Shown here one piece after another: positions 8,997-28,301 of a stretch of 32,000 nt of DNA (its first letter is position 1; each line of letters starts with the position of its first letter). The translations under genes and the position numbers were made by a program. Under the pieces are notes generated by a model. It did not search any database. It worked only from the letters and a program-made list of their open reading frames with translations, and was not told the origin of the DNA. Where the stretch lies: NCBI RefSeq assembly GCF_000011805.1, contig NC_006841.2. The stretch is one strand, 5' to 3'. The DNA comes from Aliivibrio fischeri ES114. GTDB taxonomy: Bacteria > Pseudomonadota > Gammaproteobacteria > Enterobacterales > Vibrionaceae.

Positions 8997-10691
8997 TTAT
9001 TTGTTAGGTATGGATAACATAGGTAAATCTAGGTTTTGTTCTTTTGCACAATTGATCGCTATATCATAACCCGCATCAGCATGTCGCATTACGCCCGTTG
9101 CTGGGTCATTATGTAATACTCGACTGACACGTTCAGTTGCCTCATCAGTTCCATCACATACGATGACCATACCTGAATGTTGTGAGAAACCCATGCCGAC
9201 GCCTCCACCATGGTGTAAGGATACCCACGTTGCTCCTGAGGCGGTATTGAGTAGGGCGTTTAATAGCGGCCAGTCAGACACGGCATCTGAACCATCCATC
9301 ATGTCTTCGGTCTCACGGTTTGGGCTGGCGACAGAGCCGGAGTCAAGATGATCACGACCAATGACGATAGGAGCTTTTAACTCTCCATTTTTTACCATCT
9401 CATTGAATGCTTTACCGAGACGAGCACGATCTTTTAGTCCAACCCAGCAGATACGTGCAGGTAACCCTTGAAATTGAATGCGTTCACGTGCCATGTCTAA
9501 CCAATTGTGAAGGTGTGGATTATCAGGGATCAGTTCTTTTACTTTTTGGTCGGTTTTGTAAATATCTTCAGGATCACCAGATAGAGCTGCCCAGCGAAAT
9601 GGTCCTATACCTTCACAAAATAGAGGACGAATATAAGCTGGAACGAATCCAGGGAAATCAAAGGCATTAGTGATGCCTTCTTCAAAAGCCATTTGTCGAA
9701 TATTGTTGCCATAATCTACCGTTGCTGAGCCTGATTTTTGAAGAGATAGCATTGCCTCTACTTGAACAGCCATTGATTGTTTTGCTGCATTCACTACATT
9801 GATTTCATCTTTTAAGCGCATTTTTGCTGCGCCATCCATTGACCATCCTTGAGGTAAATAACCATTAAGAGGGTCGTGAGCAGATGTTTGGTCAGTAGTA
9901 ATGTCAGGAACAATTCCACGTTTTACAATTTCAGCATAGACATCAGCAGCATTACCTAATAAACCAACAGAAATAGGAGAGCTAGAACGTTTTGCTTCTT
10001 CAATGATAGAGAGGGCTTCACTGAGTGTTGTCGCTTTACGGTCTACATAGCCTGTACGGAGACGGTAATCGATACGAGATTCATCACACTCAACCGCTAG
10101 CATTGAGAAGCCAGCCATGGTTGCAGCAAGAGGTTGAGCACCTCCCATACCGCCAAGCCCACCAGTTAGGATCCAGCGACCTTGTGTATCACCATTAAAA
10201 TGCTGCTTTGCCATTGCAATAAAAGTTTCGTAAGTTCCTTGAACAATACCTTGTGACCCAATGTAGATCCAACTGCCAGCCGTCATTTGACCGTACATCA
10301 TCAAACCTTGCTTATCGAGTTCATTAAAATGTGCCCAATTAGCCCAATGAGGGACTAAATTGGAATTAGCGATTAATACTCGTGGTGCGTTAGTGTGAGT
10401 TTTAAATACTCCAACGGGTTTACCTGATTGCACCATTAAGGTTTCATCATCTTCTAGACGAGTTAACACTTCGATGATTTTATCGTAGCATTGCCAGTTT
10501 CGTGCAGCACGACCAATACCGCCATAAACGACCAAAGCGTGGGGATGTTCTGCGACGTCAGGATGTAAATTATTCATGAGCATTCGAAGTGGGGCTTCTG
10601 TTAACCATGATTTAGCCGTTAACTCGATTCCTGTCGGTGCAATGATAGTACGAGACTCATCCAGTCTAGGGTTAGATGATGTTTGTGTCAT
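8997..10691 (-). CDS. hutU: Urocanate hydratase
   Basis: 564 aa with the NAD-binding segment [29 protein letters not shown] upstream. Flanked by hutH and hutG. Confidence 0.95.
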
Positions 10692-10709
10692 TATTGCTTC
10701 TCCTTGCTA

Positions 10710-11747
10710 TTACATATTTGATTTCATACCGTGAGCGATGGTCCAAACGAGCCGAGCAACTAAACGTGCCGTTTGATTATCAATATCAAAGGTAGGATTA
10801 AACTCAGCGAGATCCGCCAGTAGTAATTTGGATTCACCGTGTTGGTTTTTAGCTTTTAAAATATCGGGTAACAGTGATTCTATAATGTCTAATGAAACAC
10901 CACGCACTGCAGGAGCGCTTACCCCTGGTGCGCATGACGCTGGAAATACGTCGATATCGATAGTGAGATAAAGAAAGTCGTTTTGTTCAATGAATTCGGA
11001 AAGAGCCTGTTTAATTTGAGGTAAATTTAATAGGTTCATTTCAATATCATCAAAATGAAGCACACCTAACTGTTTTGCTTTGTGATAAAGAGCTTGAGTA
11101 TTACTGCCTTTATTTAGACCTAAACAGGCATAGTGGAAAGGCCAATGTTGAACATGACAAAATTCTGATATTTGGTGGAATGGGGTTCCAGAGTTACCGT
11201 ATTGTTTACTTGATTGAGACGCTGAACTTGATGGTGATTGAGATAAGTTCCTCAAATCAAAATGTGCATCGAAATTAATGATACCAATACGTGGTGGAGG
11301 TGTAGGTGATGTTAAAACAGCTCTGCTTTGTAAATAACGAGCAATGCCTTGAAATGATCCCCATGCTACTTCATGACCACCTCCGAGAACAATAACTTGA
11401 TGCCTATTGGCTAAGGCTGATTTTATTTTGATCCCGAGTTGCTTTTGAGCTAATTCAAGGTCGCCATCATTACACTGGATATCTCCTCCATCATAAACAT
11501 CGCTTTGATGGTGCCAAGCTAAATTAGCTAATGCACGGCGAATGACCTGAGGAGCGGCATAAGCTCCCTTACGTCCTTTATTACGAATAACGCCTTCATC
11601 ACAAGCAAAGCCTAATAGCATTATGCCATCTTGGTTTGTACTATTTGTCACTTTTACTTTTTGATGCCATCGCAAACCAAGTTCACCATCTTCATGATCC
11701 ACTCTTCCCATCCAGCTTGTCATATTGACCGATGAATTATTTTTCAT
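10710..11747 (-). CDS. hutG: Formimidoylglutamase (arginase/ureohydrolase fold)
   Basis: Ureohydrolase metal motifs are present: [18 protein letters not shown] and TIDIDVF. The track ORF starts at TTG 11768. ATG 11747 has GGAGAG 7 nt upstream and overlaps the hutI stop (ATGAAAAATAA), so the start is uncertain among 11768, 11762, 11747 and 11723. Confidence 0.85.
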
Positions 11748-12963
11748 GAAAGATCTCTCCATCGACAACCCTAGCTATTAGGTCAGGTACTCCTAATCGA
11801 TAAGAAAGTTCAGCGGGTGACTCCAACTGCCAAATAGCAAAATCTGCCTCCATACCAACCGCTATTTTTCCTCTGAAATGTTGTAACCCAAGTGCTTGAG
11901 CTGCATGACAAGTGACGCCTCGTAATGATTCTTCTGGCGTTAATTTAAATAAGGTACAGGCCATGTTCATTATTGTTCTCAATGATGCAATAGGAGAGGT
12001 TCCGGGGTTAAAATCCGTCGCAATGGCCATTGGTATCTTATATTGCCTTAATAAAGGAATTGGGGGGAGTTTGCTTTCTTTTAGATAATAGAAGGCTCCG
12101 GGAAGTAGAGTTGCTACGGTATTATTCGTTGCTAATGCTTTAACACCATTTTCATCAAGGTATTCGATGTGATCAACAGAGTCAGCTCCCATAGAGGCCG
12201 CTAACGCACTCCCTTCAAGGTTAGATAGTTGCTCTGTATGTCCTTTAATTCGTAATCCATGATTTAGTGCTGCACGGAAAACTCGTTCACATTGTTTGGG
12301 TGAAAATCCAATGCCTTCGCAAAAAACATCAACATGATTGGCAAGATTCAATTTAACCACTTGAGGAATGATGCTTTCGCAAATTAAATCAATATATTCA
12401 TCGGAGCGGTTTTTGTATTCAGGAGGGACAGCATGAGCAGCAAGAAGAGTGGTTGATACCTTCATATCAGGTAATTCTGATATACGTTTAGCTACCTTGA
12501 GCATTTTTATTTCATCATCAAGAGTTAGACCATAACCTGATTTGATCTCAATCGTAGTGACACCGTCACGTTTGAGTCCTTCTAGGCGCTGTACCGCTAG
12601 GTGATAAAGCTCATCTTCACTTGCTTCACGTGTTGCATGAACGGTAGATAAAATTCCGCCACCTTGTTTTGCTATCTCTTCATAAGGTATGCCTAGCAAA
12701 CGTTGTTCGAATTCATTTGCACGATTTCCTGCAAAAATAAGATGTGTATGGCAGTCAATGAAACCGGGAGTAACTAATGCGTGTGCACAATCAATAATAT
12801 CAGGGTGGCCATGTAAAATAGAGGGACAGGGTTCACCAACATATTCAACTTTCCCGTTTCTTACTCCAATCATGGTATCTTTTAGCACTTGATAGCCATC
12901 AGAACCCGTCTGCTGTTTATCTACCATAGAAACAAGATGTAAATTAATAAAAACTCTGTCCAT
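11737..12963 (-). CDS. hutI: Imidazolonepropionase
   Basis: 408 aa amidohydrolase with [11 protein letters not shown] and the downstream His/Asp ligands. First gene of the hutIGUH unit. Confidence 0.93.
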
Positions 12964-24286: not shown

Positions 24287-24308
24287 AATATAAGTTTTTA
24301 GTAAGATA

Positions 24309-24340
24309 AAGCCCTTAGATATATTCTGAGGGCTTTTTTT
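24309..24340 (+). terminator. Rho-independent terminator of lolCDE
   Basis: aagcccttag pairs with ctgagggctt (8 to 10 bp including one G-U pair) around a 7-nt loop, followed by a T7 run (24334-24340). Confidence 0.85.
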
Positions 24341-24450
24341 ATGTGATTTAAAAATTCCTAACTATACTTATAGGATATTAAAACTAGGTATATAAGCAAT
24401 AAGGAAAGGCATTATAGAATTTAGTTAATTCATATTGATAGAGGTTAGAT

Positions 24451-25800
24451 ATGGATATACATGATAATAATCGTATTTCAATGTATGTTATTGGAAATGA
24501 TATTCCAATTAATTGTCAGGACCTTGATTTTATATATGTTAATAATTTAGATGAATTAACATTAGATTCTCCTTCAGTAATAATTTTAGCTTTAGAGCCT
24601 AAAAAACAGAATCAAGCATTACTATCCTTACATCAAGATTTTCCACTTTGGGATAGCCAAGTCTATGTTTTACAAGAGAGTACATTGACTGAATACCTAT
24701 CTGATGGCATTTTTGATCCCTTCAAAATTACAGCGCAATGGAAACAGCATCAAAGTAAATTATCTTTAATTGAAGAAGAACCAACAGACAAACTACTGGC
24801 GTGGTTATGGCTTGGGTTGGATCGACGTTTATTGCCTTTATGCCAAAGTGAGAAAAGAGAACTATATTATTATCCATTATTACATTGTTATTTTGGTGAG
24901 GATTATGAGCCTTATCATTATTTTCAATTAGAGGAAAAAAGAGGGTATTTAGAAAAGCTTAATACCGTAGATAAAATAAGATTATGCTCATCTTGTCATA
25001 GCGGACATTTAAATTACATCGAGACTTGCCCCGACTGTAAGAGTACAAACATCGAAGAGATATTATCTCTGCATTGTTTCACTTGTGGTCATGTGGGTAA
25101 AGAGCAACGTTTTGTTAAACAAGATAAACTGCAGTGCCCAAATTGTTTTACTAAGTTACGTCATATTGGTGTTGATTATGATAGACCGTTGGAGCGCTAT
25201 CAATGTCGAGATTGTCAGTTATCATTTTCAGAATCGGTAGTGAGAGTTCGATGTCTTTCTTGTTTCCATATGAATGAGACCAGTGAGTTAATAGCAAGGC
25301 CAATTAATCAATTTAAAGTGGGTGAGCAGGTTAAAGGTCTTATGATGTATGGTCGTCGACCGATAGAGCAAGAGCTCTCACTTAACGGTTTAATTGACCA
25401 AAATTCATTTCATAATTTGTTGGTATGGATAAATAAGCTAGCAATAAGACATGAACAGCACCATTTATTATTAGGGGTTCAATTATCTGGTATTGATAGC
25501 TACTCAAAAGAGTTTGGTGAGATAAAGCGGATACAGTTAATCGATGAAATATCATCTCATTTTAATGGGTTGCTGAGAGACACAGACATTTGCTGTCAAT
25601 ACAATTCAGAACTGATGTTACTTCTTATGCCAATGACACCAAGAAGTTCGCATAAAATTATGGAAGATAAAATCGCCAATATTGCCAGTGATATTGAGTC
25701 TGAACTGGTGACTCTTCATTTGTACATCTGGGAATTGCCTGACCCTTCATTGAGTAATAGTGCTTCAGTATGGTTAGCTGATTTGCTTAAGGATATATGA
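24451..25800 (+). CDS. Soluble regulator-like protein: N-terminal alpha/beta region, three tandem CxxC..CxxC zinc ribbons, C-terminal degenerate GGDEF domain with intact RxxD I-site
   Basis: AGAGG RBS upstream. There are 12 Cys in three CxxC-N10-16-CxxC units (aa 179-271, nt 24985..25263). The C-terminal RDTDICCQYNSELMLLLMPMT aligns residue-for-residue with PleD RAIDLPCRYGGEEFVVIMPDT. That gives an RxxD at 25576..25587 and NSELM in place of GGEEF at 25603..25617. No TM segment. The stop overlaps the next ATG (ATGA). Confidence 0.7.
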   Translation: MDIHDNNRISMYVIGNDIPINCQDLDFIYVNNLDELTLDSPSVIILALEPKKQNQALLSLHQDFPLWDSQVYVLQESTLTEYLSDGIFDPFKITAQWKQHQSKLSLIEEEPTDKLLAWLWLGLDRRLLPLCQSEKRELYYYPLLHCYFGEDYEPYHYFQLEEKRGYLEKLNTVDKIRLCSSCHSGHLNYIETCPDCKSTNIEEILSLHCFTCGHVGKEQRFVKQDKLQCPNCFTKLRHIGVDYDRPLERYQCRDCQLSFSESVVRVRCLSCFHMNETSELIARPINQFKVGEQVKGLMMYGRRPIEQELSLNGLIDQNSFHNLLVWINKLAIRHEQHHLLLGVQLSGIDSYSKEFGEIKRIQLIDEISSHFNGLLRDTDICCQYNSELMLLLMPMTPRSSHKIMEDKIANIASDIESELVTLHLYIWELPDPSLSNSASVWLADLLKDI

Positions 25801-27112
25801 TGGCTGAATTTCAATATATTCTTTATTTAATAACCGGTACGTTGACGACATATTGGGAGTTAATGCTAACTTTTTTGCCTATATTATTGCTTGTTGAAGT
25901 CCCGCTTTTATTGCTCATTTTTATTGGTATTTTGCATTGGTCATGGGGAGCGAATGAAGTCAGGAAACATGAACATCCATCAATCAGTTTTATTGTTACC
26001 TGTTATGCAGAAGGTAAAGAGATAGAAAAAACCATTGCTACTTTGGTTGAGCAAATCTATCCAAACCACATTGAAATCTTAGTTGTGATTGATGGTGCTA
26101 AAGAGAATAAAGAGACGTATAGAACAGCTATATCTTTGATTAAAAATACAAAAATATACCGAATAAGACCATTAAAATTCTTCCTAAATGGCAACGTGGT
26201 GGACGTGTATCGACTCTTAATGCCGGGCTATCAGAAGCAAAATATGAATTGGTTATCAATGTGGATGGAGACACCTCTTTTGATAACAATATGGCGCTTA
26301 AAATGGCGCGAACATTTGCAAATCCTAATGTTATTGCTTGTGGAGGTGCGTTAAGGGTAAGAAATCGAGAGAGCAGTTTCTGGACAAAAATGCAGTCACT
26401 CGAATATATGATGTCGATGCAGAGCAGTAAAACAGGAATGGCAACATGGGGCTTATTGAATAATATTTCTGGTGCATTTGGTGGTTTTAGACGTTCGGTA
26501 TTGAAACAGGTCGGTGGCTGGAATACACATACAGCAGAAGACCTCGATTTAACGATTCGTTTAAAACAATACAAAAAACGATACCCAGGAACTCGGCTTA
26601 ACTTTTCCCCTAGAGCGATTGGACATACTGATGTACCAGATACATTTAAAGGTTTAATGAGCCAAAGATTACGTTGGGATGGCGATCTTCTGTTTGTGTA
26701 TTTACGAAAACATAAACATGGGTTACGCCCAAAATTGTATGGATGGGGAAGTTTTGGTTACACCTTAGTTTATGGTGTTTTACAAGCTGTATTATTACCG
26801 GTATTAATGACACTGTTTAATTTTTATATATTTATATTTTATCCAACAACAGTGGTTCTCGCAGTCCTAAGCTGTTTATACGTCATTTATTTGGTATTCA
26901 TTGCCATGACCTTTCTTATCTATCTCAGCTTGATTTCCGAACGGATCCAAGAAGACCGTGAAATGCTTTTATGGTTATTGATATATCCATTCTATGCATT
27001 GTTTATGCGGTTTGTTACTGCATTTGCCATGATAAATGAAATTGTTAGACGAAGTCATGAGGAGTCAAGCATGGCTCCATGGTGGGTACTCAAACGTGGT
27101 AAGAGGTTTTAA
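25797..27112 (+). pseudogene. Processive family-2 glycosyltransferase (membrane polysaccharide synthase, PgaC/BcsA/Alg8-like), split by a 1-nt frameshift
   Basis: The GT-A fold is divided between ORFs 25797..26354 and 26249..27112. Frame 0 reads ..VVIDGAKENKETYRTAISLIKNTK and then nonsense. The -1 frame is open from 26144 and reads (K)NIPNKTIKILPKWQRGGRVSTLNAGLSEAKYELVINVDGDT. DGD lies at 26264..26272, TAED follows, and QRLRW lies at 26663..26677. TM helices sit at both ends. The span is 1316 nt, which is 1 nt short of 439 codons. Confidence 0.8.
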
Positions 27113-27117
27113 CGATT

Positions 27118-28164
27118 ATGGATGTTAAATTTCATTTAGAAAAAAAGAATAAACCGACCTCAGACAACGGTATGAAAGTGTTGTATGGAATGGAAAAACG
27201 TGGAGCGTATCGTTTTCGATGGTATCTGATACTGGCTATTATTCTTAGTCCTATATTTTTTATGATTTACACCTTTGCAAAACAACATTTATTTACTGTA
27301 GCTCCTGGAATAATCACCACAGGGCCTGTGATCATCACAGCATCTCAAAATGGAACAGTAAAGTTAATTGATGTGAAAGACAGTGAATTTGTTTTGGAAG
27401 ATCAATTGCTAATGGAATTAGATGCGCCCATTTTAGAGCAAGAAATTGAATTTATAGAAAATGAATTAGAGCAATTATACCAAGAGCAAACGCAAAAAAT
27501 TACAGAAGATTTTGGTCCGTATATTAGTGCGATTGGAGCTGCAAAGCTTAATTTAAAAAAGATAACGAAAATCAAAGTCAATTATGATCAATACGCAAAA
27601 GAGGGGAAAGTATCCCAAGTGGATTATGCCGCAATTGTTGGTATTTATAACACCGCACAAAATAATCTTACTAATGCTTATATCGCATTGAATCAAGCTG
27701 AAATCGCACAAAAGCAACGCCTATTGGCTGGCGGTGTTGCTCAAGTTACTCGTGAATTAAACCAAGCATTAACAACGAAAAAAAATCAACTTGATGCATT
27801 GTCAATTAGAGCTCCGTATATGGGATTGGTGATTGATATTAATGCCTTGAAAGGACAACAAATTAGCATTGGGGATCCACTGGTCACTGTATCACCAGAT
27901 GTTGCTCCTTATGTCATTAGTTATTTAGACCCTAAGCACATTGAAAAAGCAAAACTAGGAGCATTAGTAACGGTTAAACTTCCTAATGGTAAAAAAGTAG
28001 AGGCGAGAGTGTCATCTGCCATAGGTTTAACCTCAAAACTTCCTATTCAGTTAGCAAAACCTTTTGAAGGTGCTAAAGCTTTACTCAAGGTTAAAATTAC
28101 ATTTTTAGGGGGGGTATTAGAAAAAGAGTGGGTAGAAGGCATGCCGGTAGAGGTGTATTTTTAG
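27118..28164 (+). CDS. HlyD-type membrane-fusion (periplasmic adaptor) protein, single N-terminal TM
   Basis: TM helix WYLILAIILSPIFFMIYTF. Lipoyl-like half-motifs are present (GIITTGPVIITASQNGTVKLIDVKDSEFVLEDQLLMELD and IRAPYMGLVIDINALKGQQISIGDPLVTV), separated by a coiled coil. It starts 5 nt after the synthase stop. Confidence 0.8.
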   Translation: MDVKFHLEKKNKPTSDNGMKVLYGMEKRGAYRFRWYLILAIILSPIFFMIYTFAKQHLFTVAPGIITTGPVIITASQNGTVKLIDVKDSEFVLEDQLLMELDAPILEQEIEFIENELEQLYQEQTQKITEDFGPYISAIGAAKLNLKKITKIKVNYDQYAKEGKVSQVDYAAIVGIYNTAQNNLTNAYIALNQAEIAQKQRLLAGGVAQVTRELNQALTTKKNQLDALSIRAPYMGLVIDINALKGQQISIGDPLVTVSPDVAPYVISYLDPKHIEKAKLGALVTVKLPNGKKVEARVSSAIGLTSKLPIQLAKPFEGAKALLKVKITFLGGVLEKEWVEGMPVEVYF

Positions 28165-28301
28165 TATTTTTATTAAGTTAGTATAATTAATGAACAACGT
28201 TAGTTTTTACCTATCAATACAATAACTAAAACTGATTAGTAATAAAGAGAAGTTGTTCTTATTATACAGAGATACTTTGCTGTGTATCGGATAGAAAAAT
28301 A

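Follow-up and report, generated by a model that had tools for sequence, protein, structure and literature searches.

VF_A0465 of Aliivibrio fischeri ES114, a probable MxdA-type c-di-GMP receptor combining a TackOD1 domain with a degenerate GGDEF domain

The mxd-like locus and its conservation

The stretch of DNA analyzed here (the window) comprises 32,000 nucleotides of contig NC_006841.2 of A. fischeri ES114 (NCBI RefSeq assembly GCF_000011805.1). An open reading frame (ORF) at 24451..25800 on the + strand begins with ATG, with AGAGG located 8 nt upstream of the start, and its product, a 449-aa soluble protein, is 100% identical to ES114 VF_A0465. The protein consists of an N-terminal alpha/beta domain, a TackOD1 domain and a degenerate GGDEF domain. 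BLASTP aligned it with MxdA of Shewanella oneidensis (E=1e-80, 34% identity over about 428 of the 449 residues, 26–446), this homologue, SO_4180, being recognized by its accession and name, and we refer to the gene as mxdA-like. Upstream, lolE is followed by a terminator-like hairpin and T-run (24308..24336, + strand; 12-bp stem, 5 GC pairs, T-rich tail), a predicted boundary that separates lolCDE from the mxd-like operon. No match to a c-di-GMP riboswitch or any other RNA element reached the Rfam gathering score anywhere in the window, including the 164-nt leader. Sub-threshold Rfam matches overlap the hairpin behind lolE.

The mxdA-like gene heads a closely packed cluster, the start of the second gene, VF_A0466 (25797..27112, + strand), overlapping its stop codon in the sequence ATGA. 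VF_A0466 corresponds to an mxdB-like family-2 glycosyltransferase (GT2) of the PgaC/IcaA-like type and appears as two ORFs in the window; the intact 438-aa mxdB-like GT2 from locus L001 matched PgaC_IcaA with E=9.8e-47. A run of five A residues in VF_A0466 (26142..26146, + strand) corresponds to six in strain emors.2.1, and this 1-nt deletion frameshifts the glycosyltransferase. Resequencing of ES114 confirmed the −1 frameshift and the assignment of VF_A0466 as a pseudogene (PMC2330054). The conserved third gene (27118..28164, + strand) encodes an mxdC-like, 348-aa periplasmic adaptor of the HlyD membrane-fusion family, with HlyD_3 and EmrA/EmrK-type matches. No mxdD follows mxdC in this window, where zwf is next and begins 138 nt past mxdC.

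This gene order is shared across the family. Of 80 loci, 78 have a GT2 gene directly after the mxdA-like gene and 76 have both the GT2 and a HlyD adaptor, the other loci ending too early; the order mxdA-like gene, PgaC-like GT2 (MxdB) and HlyD-type adaptor (MxdC) was thus found in all of the approximately 76–77 loci with enough downstream DNA. Syntenic loci occur in Vibrionaceae, Aeromonas, Shewanella, Pseudoalteromonas, Rheinheimera, Pseudomonas, Halomonas and Methylococcales, the versions in Pseudomonas and Halomonas having an inserted TolC-like gene. The Shewanella loci carry an ORF of 146–175 aa without a Pfam match after mxdC. Because most genera have no mxdD, this gene is probably not family-defining.

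Comparison of ES114 with strain emors.2.1 yielded dN/dS values of 0.04 for mxdA, 0.02 for mxdB and 0.03 for mxdC, indicating purifying selection, and no lesion other than the A5/A6 difference was found in mxdB or mxdC. The frameshift of VF_A0466 is therefore recent. Strain emors.2.1 also has a paralogous mxdABC operon about 14 kb away, immediately following the GGDEF/EAL genes VF_A0475 and VF_A0476. Identification of the second A. fischeri copy (P0010) with VF_A0476, which belongs to a functional census of 50 V. fischeri c-di-GMP proteins, was rejected, as the gene to which the published primers map is the one upstream of P0010. Some other A. fischeri strains have truncated versions of VF_A0465 (279 and 322 aa), and the locus may therefore be decaying.

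These observations bear on whether VF_A0465 of ES114 is a functionless remnant, with a dead partner synthase and no receptor output in this strain. The confirmed frameshift and the truncated variants are consistent with such a state, as is the absence of VF_A0465 from the census, on account of which no phenotype is on record for it. A search of the literature for VF_A0465, VF_A0466 and VF_A0467 by name returned the 2008 resequencing paper only. On the other hand, the VF_A0465 ORF is intact, its dN/dS value and the otherwise undamaged mxdB and mxdC do not suggest decay, and there are possible targets, namely the paralogous mxdABC operon seen in emors.2.1 or the two apparently functional GT2 paralogues reported in ES114 (PMC2330054). 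We regard the loss of function as unlikely, although far from negligible, and it concerns the strain only, leaving the function of the family unaffected. Since the cognate synthase is frameshifted, the receptor would be either idle in ES114 or acting on the paralogous mxd operon.

The TackOD1 cysteine array and the alpha/beta domain

Residues 106–290 (24766..25320, + strand) match the Pfam domain TackOD1 (PF18551) with E=9.7e-70 and 234.4 bits (cut-off 32) over profile positions 4–188 of 188, and comprise a helical sub-domain followed by a zinc-ribbon array. The three serial four-cysteine ribbons that the earlier note had described are matched exactly by the translation: CSSC-N10-CPDC (C179, C182, C193, C196; 24985..25038), CFTC-N16-CPNC (C209, C212, C229, C232; 25075..25146) and CRDC-N12-CLSC (C252, C255, C268, C271; 25204..25263), all on the + strand. 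In an alignment of 80 homologues (29–58% identity), which underlies all conservation counts given here, each of the 12 Cys is kept in 79–80 sequences (all 80 for the second unit), and H208, just before the second unit, and H238 are present in all. As a sequence pattern, the six CxxC pairs lie far beyond chance. Conservation is highest in the loop H238-IGVDYDRPL-E248 between the second and third units (25162..25194, + strand), in which 9 of 11 positions (H, I, G, D, Y, D, R, P and E) are each invariant in 80/80 homologues; model confidence is low there, with pLDDT <50 at residues 240–244. In the AF2 model, short strands flank every CxxC knuckle, and residues 114–178 form three helices and a hairpin. 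The pairing of the cysteines and the identity of the bound metal are predicted from the sequence.

CPxC and CxxCG knuckles are common to zinc ribbons and rubredoxins, and the Cys-rich module might accordingly be a sensor rather than a scaffold, being redox-active or binding iron in the manner of rubredoxin, with its oxidation or metal status gating the response to c-di-GMP. The twelve near-invariant Cys together with the invariant H208 and H238 would suit such a sensor, as would the link of Shewanella mxd expression to ArcS/ArcA and starvation (PMC3691769). However, rubredoxins gave no significant structural match in the Foldseek search of PDB. Archaeal TackOD1 proteins moreover share the Cys pattern; TackOD1 has been likened to zinc-binding proteins (YfgJ and the PriA insert), the HHpred similarity to zinc-bound YfgJ being given in the supplement, and the predicted metal binding might stabilize the structure (Galperin 2018). 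We judge a sensory role to be improbable, and consider that the Cys4 units would most likely be structural zinc sites forming a rigid surface for protein–protein interaction, with the invariant HIGVDYDRPxE loop as the best candidate contact site.

Zinc ribbons often bind nucleic acids, and the helical sub-domain and ribbons could in principle bind DNA or RNA, c-di-GMP then modulating transcription of the operon. The helices and hairpin of residues 114–178 and the existence of an archaeal REC-wHTH-TackOD1 architecture are compatible with a regulator of this kind, and the weak Foldseek matches include zinc-ribbon subunits of RNA polymerase I and RPA. Nevertheless, DNA-binding families in Pfam, NCBIfam and PDB gave no significant match, the translational coupling to the synthase and the strict synteny are more in keeping with a stoichiometric partner than with a transcription factor, and transcription of Shewanella mxd has been attributed to ArcA and UvrY (PMC3691769). 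A nucleic-acid-binding function is thus very improbable.

The alpha/beta domain in front of TackOD1 (residues 1–105; 24451..24765, + strand) was modeled with AF2 pLDDT of 83–96 and is weakly receiver-like. The Ala of ILALEP, noted earlier as occupying the place of the phospho-Asp, is residue 47 and does align with Asp57 of CheY. In the 80 homologues, this column contains N (24), D (22), A (13) and S (10), N or D together accounting for 46 of 80, and the family alignment has no conserved acidic pair after strand 1. The best receiver (REC) structure by Foldseek was 2qxy, a weak match (TM 0.48, prob 0.44, E=0.65); a search of PDB with an N-terminal profile (hmmsearch) reached REC at a non-significant E=1.6, and hhalign against REC gave a probability of 11.7%, the 40 aligned columns being in the correct register. 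No Pfam match was present in this region in 31 family members. A receiver-like nature of residues 1–105 is weakly suggested by these data.

The degenerate GGDEF domain and its I-site

Residues 309–449 (25375..25797, + strand) form a catalytically degenerate GGDEF-fold domain, as identified by Foldseek and phmmer. The GGDEF fold proposed for the C-terminus was borne out by the predicted structure, for which Foldseek returned 88 PDB matches at E<=0.001 (best 2.2e-8, prob 1.0), with TM of 0.65–0.71 over about 145 columns against isolated GGDEF domains. At the sequence level, phmmer aligned the C-terminus with WspR at E~0.01, and Pfam GGDEF (PF00990) scored 16.0 bits (E=0.011), under the gathering cut-off of 23.8, a cut-off that some homologues of VF_A0465 do exceed in precomputed Pfam.

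The motif pairs proposed earlier hold in the WspR alignment: LNGL with LTGL, GEIKRI with GHVAGD, VQLS with the segment containing D209 and D211, and RDTD-ICCQY-NSELM with RSSD-LAARY-GGEEF. The assertion that the catalytic residues are lost was right for most of them: NSELM (25603..25617, + strand) replaces GG by NS, Q344 and S346 stand where WspR has D209 and D211 of the DxD pair, and Asn/Asp of the guanine-binding helix are replaced by S and K. The acidic residue at position 3 of the signature, however, is kept as E387, which aligns with WspR E253, and this position is Asp or Glu in 74 of 80 family members. None of the 80 homologues has GG at the signature. CdgG, a degenerate GGDEF protein with RxxD from V. 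cholerae and V. fischeri, was considered as the identity of VF_A0465 and rejected, CdgG having SGEEF and VF_A0465 NSELM.

The RxxD motif is retained, as had been noted. RDTD (R376–D379; 25576..25587, + strand) lies five residues before the signature and corresponds to R242xxD245 of WspR, and R376 and D379 are conserved in 78 and 80 of the 80 homologues, respectively. In the register of this alignment, R333 (25447..25449, + strand; 78/80 conserved) is the counterpart of R198 in WspR, described as the secondary I-site arginine (PMC2270323), which places it with the helix 1 arginines of the WspR R198 and PleD R390 type. Judged by alignment, the I-site of VF_A0465 is complete, all three residues being kept while the residues needed for catalysis are gone. 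Diguanylate cyclase activity of VF_A0465 through a non-canonical site can hardly be credited. In its favor are the kept Glu387 and the name 'diguanylate cyclase' given to orthologues from V. parahaemolyticus, V. alginolyticus, V. mimicus and elsewhere. Against it, GG and the metal-binding Asp pair are replaced, as is the guanine-binding Asn/Asp, the Pfam GGDEF score is sub-threshold, and MxdA is reported to affect c-di-GMP indirectly only (PMC3691769).

The combination of ribbons and GGDEF domain, which the earlier note did not recognize and took to be unusual, proved to be neither new nor rare. The ribbon array is Pfam TackOD1, and TackOD1–GGDEF fusions have been known since 2018, when bacterial TackOD1 was described as frequently carrying them (Galperin 2018). 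As for the distribution of the full-length architecture, it is widespread: a profile of the TackOD1 region retrieved 1648 clusters (50% identity) at E<=1e-10, and nearly all of the best 150 of these 1648 have an approximately 450-aa layout like that of VF_A0465. No GT2 domain, and hence no receptor–synthase fusion, was found in the longer TackOD1 proteins (971, 752, 526 and 502 aa). The architecture of zinc ribbons and dead GGDEF domain is therefore real, but is part of a large, previously described family.

Related systems and the proposed role of VF_A0465

The closest known counterpart is MxdA (SO_4180) of S. oneidensis MR-1, the product of the first gene of mxdABCD, which shares with VF_A0465 the three-domain layout, the conserved Cys, the I-site and the degenerate signature, and whose locus has the same order of receptor, GT2 and HlyD adaptor. 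On the side of VF_A0465, the differences are an identity of only 34%, the absence of mxdD (zwf being next) and the frameshifted synthase of ES114. PelD of Pseudomonas aeruginosa and PssE of Listeria likewise read c-di-GMP through a dead GGDEF domain with RxxD and are encoded beside the polysaccharide machinery that they control. However, PelD is anchored in the membrane and contains a GAF domain, zinc ribbons are absent from PssE, TackOD1 occurs in neither, and their partner enzymes belong to other families. BcsE of the Escherichia coli cellulose system, which is soluble and regulates a GT2 synthase, resembles VF_A0465 in its GIL module, in which a degenerate REC is combined with a degenerate GGDEF retaining the I-site. 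BcsE chains were among the weak, non-significant fold matches to residues 1–300 (E about 1), but the N-terminal domain of BcsE is NTPase-like, and a Cys-rich module is absent. In the alginate (Alg44–Alg8) and mixed-linkage glucan (BgsA–BgsB) systems, a processive GT2 and a HlyD-type periplasmic adaptor are activated post-translationally by c-di-GMP, which is read by the PilZ domain of the adaptor or by the tail of the synthase, whereas in the A. fischeri locus the site is carried by a separate soluble candidate receptor. Archaeal REC-TackOD1 regulators, such as Nitrosopumilus NKOR_04565, have the same PF18551 domain preceded by an alpha/beta domain, but differ from VF_A0465 in that their receiver is a true one, a GGDEF domain is absent, HxxC replaces one CxxC, and they are located in type IV pilus loci; 11 conserved Cys were described for archaeal TackOD1 (Galperin 2018).

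In two reports that cite Gambari 2019, MxdA is described as a c-di-GMP-binding effector (PMC7666153; PMC11395469). In addition, MxdA has CheY3 and the cyclase PdgA as interaction partners, the MxdA–MxdA pair has served as a two-hybrid positive control, and the three-dimensional Shewanella biofilm requires mxdABCD (PMC7666153; PMC11395469; PMC3691769). As a whole, sequence and synteny make VF_A0465 the full-length A. fischeri homologue, and probably the orthologue, of MxdA, and we consider it likely that the protein serves in the cytoplasm as the c-di-GMP receptor for a synthase-dependent exopolysaccharide system of the mxd type. An intercalated c-di-GMP dimer would bind R376 and D379, and R333 from a second protomer would complete the I-site, as in WspR and PleD. 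Ligand binding would then shift the oligomeric or conformational state of the MxdA protein, and TackOD1 and the N-terminal module are predicted to contact and activate the membrane synthase. The adaptor together with TolC would move a GlcNAc-type polymer across the envelope, a dedicated outer-membrane factor taking the place of TolC in Pseudomonas and Halomonas.

A broader version of this scheme, which we hold to be rather improbable, is that the pseudo-receiver and TackOD1 constitute an ancient output unit for surface behavior, common to the REC-TackOD1 regulators that archaea encode in type IV pilus loci and fused to an I-site GGDEF in Gammaproteobacteria. The triple Cys4 array and its invariant HIGVDYDRPxE loop would in that case form a docking surface at which a second input (binding of CheY-P, or metal/redox state) is integrated with c-di-GMP, both being needed to switch on the synthase–adaptor(–TolC) exporter. 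If true, MxdA-type proteins would be two-input logic gates and not simple c-di-GMP receptors.

The main value of the identification of VF_A0465 as a probable MxdA is corrective. VF_A0465 and the second A. fischeri copy are candidates for c-di-GMP receptors, VF_A0465 being unmentioned in the V. fischeri census and scoring under the Pfam GGDEF threshold, and the annotation of orthologues across Vibrio as 'diguanylate cyclase' is without sequence support. In the literature searched, the work on Shewanella Mxd and the description of the TackOD1 domain were found to be unconnected. Joining the two accounts presents MxdA as a candidate combination in which a pseudo-receiver and a triple zinc ribbon are joined to an I-site GGDEF domain, and in which the invariant loop and the three I-site residues stand out.

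The VF_A0465 locus and its relation to mxd operons

VF_A0465 is encoded by an ORF at 24451..25800 (+ strand, 449 aa), with an ATG start preceded by the sequence AGAGG 8 nt upstream. Comparison of the encoded protein with the Aliivibrio fischeri ES114 protein VF_A0465, annotated as "hypothetical protein", gave 100% identity. A terminator-like hairpin (24308–24336) lies at the end of the upstream lolCDE genes. The VF_A0465 stop codon lies in an ATGA overlap with the start of the next gene, encoding a family-2 glycosyltransferase; this gene is followed, after a gap of 5 nt, by a gene for an HlyD-type membrane-fusion protein and then by zwf. The same order (receptor, GT2, HlyD adaptor) is found in mxdABC(D) of Shewanella oneidensis, and S. 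oneidensis MxdA matched the window protein with 34% identity (E = 1e-80) in an alignment spanning residues 26–446. Judged from sequence, VF_A0465 is a member of the MxdA family. The mxd genes are required for aggregation and three-dimensional biofilm formation in Shewanella (PMC3691769), and the literature describes MxdA as a degenerate-GGDEF protein whose effect on c-di-GMP is solely indirect. In papers citing Gambari et al. 2019 (PMC7666153; PMC11395469), MxdA is reported to bind c-di-GMP, the cyclase PdgA and CheY3 are named as its partners, and the MxdA–MxdA pair serves as a two-hybrid positive control.

The intact glycosyltransferase (438 aa) best matched PgaC/IcaA over its full length (E = 9.8e-47), far below the equivalog cut-off; by this comparison, the VF_A0466-type glycosyltransferase is a distinct PgaC-like processive synthase. 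Among 80 related loci, which span Vibrionaceae, Aeromonas, Shewanella, Pseudoalteromonas, Rheinheimera, Pseudomonas/Stutzerimonas, Halomonas-group bacteria and Methylococcales, the glycosyltransferase gene was directly downstream in 78, and was accompanied by the HlyD adaptor gene in 76; the remaining loci ended too early. The Pseudomonas, Stutzerimonas and Halomonas-group loci carry a 705-aa TolC-like outer-membrane factor (PF02321) between the synthase and the adaptor (for example, at 9596–11707 of locus L049 and 9643–11772 of locus L062), and these versions resemble a tripartite efflux pump with a glycosyltransferase at its core. The G+C content of the three-gene cluster was 0.33–0.37, compared with 0.40–0.42 for lolCDE (window 24287–28300 versus flanks), and lolE and zwf flanked the cluster in A. 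fischeri only (0 of 79 other loci). The low G+C content and the A. fischeri-specific flanks suggest that the mxd-like cluster was acquired as an inserted cassette.

In ES114, loss of 1 nt from an A-run (26142–26146), which is left with five A residues, breaks the glycosyltransferase gene VF_A0466 into two ORFs. The run has six in A. fischeri strain emors.2.1, a contig of which is collinear with the window at 94% nucleotide identity. Resequencing by Mandel et al. 2008 (PMC2330054) showed that the −1 frameshift is genuine and that VF_A0466 is a pseudogene in ES114; the cognate synthase is dead in this strain. VF_A0466 was otherwise free of lesions. In the comparison of the window with emors.2.1, dN/dS was 0.04, 0.02 and 0.03 for the mxdA-, mxdB- and mxdC-like genes, respectively, indicating that the lesion is recent. 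It is plausible that VF_A0465 has itself lost its function in ES114 specifically, but such a loss would leave its family identity unchanged. Truncated forms of VF_A0465 were observed in some A. fischeri strains (279 aa in 10 contigs and 322 aa in 2 contigs). In parts of the species, this locus may be undergoing decay.

Strain ES114 has been reported to carry two apparently functional glycosyltransferase paralogues (PMC2330054). Strain emors.2.1 has another copy of the mxdABC-like operon, 56% identical to the first (L004:3847–12681), which lies beyond the window, approximately 14 kb downstream of the locus described here. It lies immediately downstream of VF_A0475 (EAL-GGDEF) and VF_A0476 (sensor GGDEF), which were identified by published primers, and is followed by a methyl-accepting chemotaxis protein gene. 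The proximity to VF_A0475 and VF_A0476 provides circumstantial support for control by c-di-GMP. Deletion of VF_A0476 caused an unexplained motility phenotype in the V. fischeri c-di-GMP census paper.

The degenerate GGDEF domain

The C-terminal region scored below the Pfam GGDEF threshold (16 versus 23.8 bits), and WspR was retrieved from the PDB by sequence with an E of about 0.01. We built an AlphaFold2 model of VF_A0465 on 26 homologues (mean pLDDT 85), the C-terminal domain of which matched solved GGDEF domains in Foldseek (E = 2.2e-8, probability 1.0, TM 0.65–0.71, ~145 columns). There were 88 matches at E ≤ 0.001, and all 50 of the matches listed were GGDEF-domain proteins, bearing out the fold that the earlier note had proposed. 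In the alignment with WspR, the primary I-site R242-S-S-D245 corresponded to R376-D-T-D379 of VF_A0465, and R198, the arginine given to the I-site by a second GGDEF domain in WspR (PMC2270323), corresponded to R333. Among 80 homologues from one-per-species genomes (29–58% identity to VF_A0465), R376, D379 and R333 were conserved in 78, 80 and 78, respectively, in agreement with the previous reading of a domain in which only the I-site is retained. The metal-binding residues D209 and D211 of WspR were replaced by Q344 and S346, G251-G-E-E-F255 was replaced by NSELM, and GG was found at the signature position in none of the 80 homologues. Together with the sub-threshold Pfam score, these substitutions make it very unlikely that VF_A0465 is an active, non-canonical diguanylate cyclase. 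Of the losses listed in the earlier note, those of the GG and the Asp pair held, but the acid at signature position 3 is retained as E387 (74 of the 80 homologues have D or E here).

Residues 347–351 (GIDSY; 25489–25503) aligned with the NVDEF sequence of S. oneidensis MxdA, which was reportedly taken by Rakshe in 2011 as a degenerate GGDEF motif. This stretch corresponds to Y212–Y216 of WspR, in the helix after strand 1, and not to the GGEEF hairpin; the aligned signature position of MxdA is TRDGL.

The TackOD1 and N-terminal domains

The translated ORF contained exactly the six CxxC pairs and spacings described in the earlier note, namely C179/C182-N10-C193/C196, C209/C212-N16-C229/C232 and C252/C255-N12-C268/C271. 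Each of the 12 Cys residues was conserved in 79 or 80 of the 80 homologues, and H208 and H238 in all 80, indicating that the pattern is a conserved feature and not due to chance. Residues 106–290 matched Pfam TackOD1 (PF18551) end to end (E = 9.7e-70, 234 bits, cut-off 32). In its description by Galperin et al. 2018 (PMC5847659), TackOD1 is defined as an output domain of thaumarchaeal response regulators, with 11 conserved Cys residues, a likeness to double zinc ribbons and an "obscure" function; Table S5 of that work lists it as [quoted passage not shown]. When a TackOD1-region profile was searched against 1.84 billion representative proteins, 2175 clusters matched at E ≤ 0.001, of which 1648 also passed a threshold of 1e-10 and 582 one of 1e-30. 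Almost all of the 150 best-scoring matches were 440–480 aa in length with TackOD1 at ~105–300, a layout as in VF_A0465, and database names such as "TackOD1 domain-containing metal-binding protein" already carry the fusion. The combination, unrecognised when the sequence was first read, is therefore common and already catalogued in view of Table S5, the 1648 clusters and these names. The Cys4 units are most simply predicted to be structural zinc sites; a redox or iron sensor in this module and a role for VF_A0465 as a DNA-binding regulator are less likely alternatives, for which the Pfam, NCBIfam and PDB searches gave no positive support.

Between Cys4 units 2 and 3 lies the loop HIGVDYDRPLE (H238–E248; 25162–25194), the most conserved stretch of the protein, with 9 of its 11 positions invariant across all 80 homologues. 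It was also the only internal segment with a pLDDT below 50 in the AlphaFold2 model; such conservation paired with low model confidence typifies elements that bind a partner. The loop matches no known motif.

Residues 1–105 form a confidently modelled alpha/beta domain. A separate model of residues 1–300 (pLDDT 88) had no Foldseek match in the PDB at E ≤ 0.001, and its best receiver match, 2qxy, was weak (TM 0.48, probability 0.44, E = 0.65). A profile of 31 N-termini matched a receiver in the PDB at E = 1.6 only, and no family in Pfam. Using hhalign with a small receiver alignment, we obtained 11.7% probability over 40 columns, in the register expected for a receiver, which placed Ala47 (24589–24591) at the position of CheY Asp57. 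Column 47 was Asn or Asp in 46 of 80 homologues; Asp (LLLDLPG) occurred in 17/17 Pseudomonas and Stutzerimonas homologues and in five others, and the acidic pair after strand 1 was absent from these Asp-containing proteins. The N-terminal domain is possibly a pseudo-receiver.

Proposed mechanism and significance

VF_A0465 combines a GGDEF fold and an intact I-site with loss of catalytic residues, and its gene keeps a strict, translationally coupled arrangement with those for a synthase and an adaptor. We propose that c-di-GMP would bind at R376/D379, the I-site probably being completed by R333 of a second protomer, as in WspR and PleD, and that binding would alter how the receptor assembles. 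The membrane synthase would then be engaged and activated through the N-terminal and TackOD1 part, while a GlcNAc-type polymer would be exported by the adaptor together with either TolC or a dedicated outer-membrane factor.

A functional census covering 50 c-di-GMP proteins of V. fischeri makes no mention of VF_A0465, and in the searchable papers we found nothing that connects work on Mxd with the account of TackOD1. Orthologues from V. parahaemolyticus, V. alginolyticus, V. mimicus, V. cholerae, Photobacterium and Plesiomonas (P0020, P0023, P0024 and other homologues) are annotated as "diguanylate cyclase", and those so named all lack both the GG(D/E)EF signature and the metal-binding Asp pair. 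While the TackOD1–GGDEF fusion itself is already known, the new or useful points are the omission of VF_A0465 from the census, the misnaming of many MxdA-family orthologues as cyclases, and the two literatures, Mxd and TackOD1, that stood unjoined in the papers searched.
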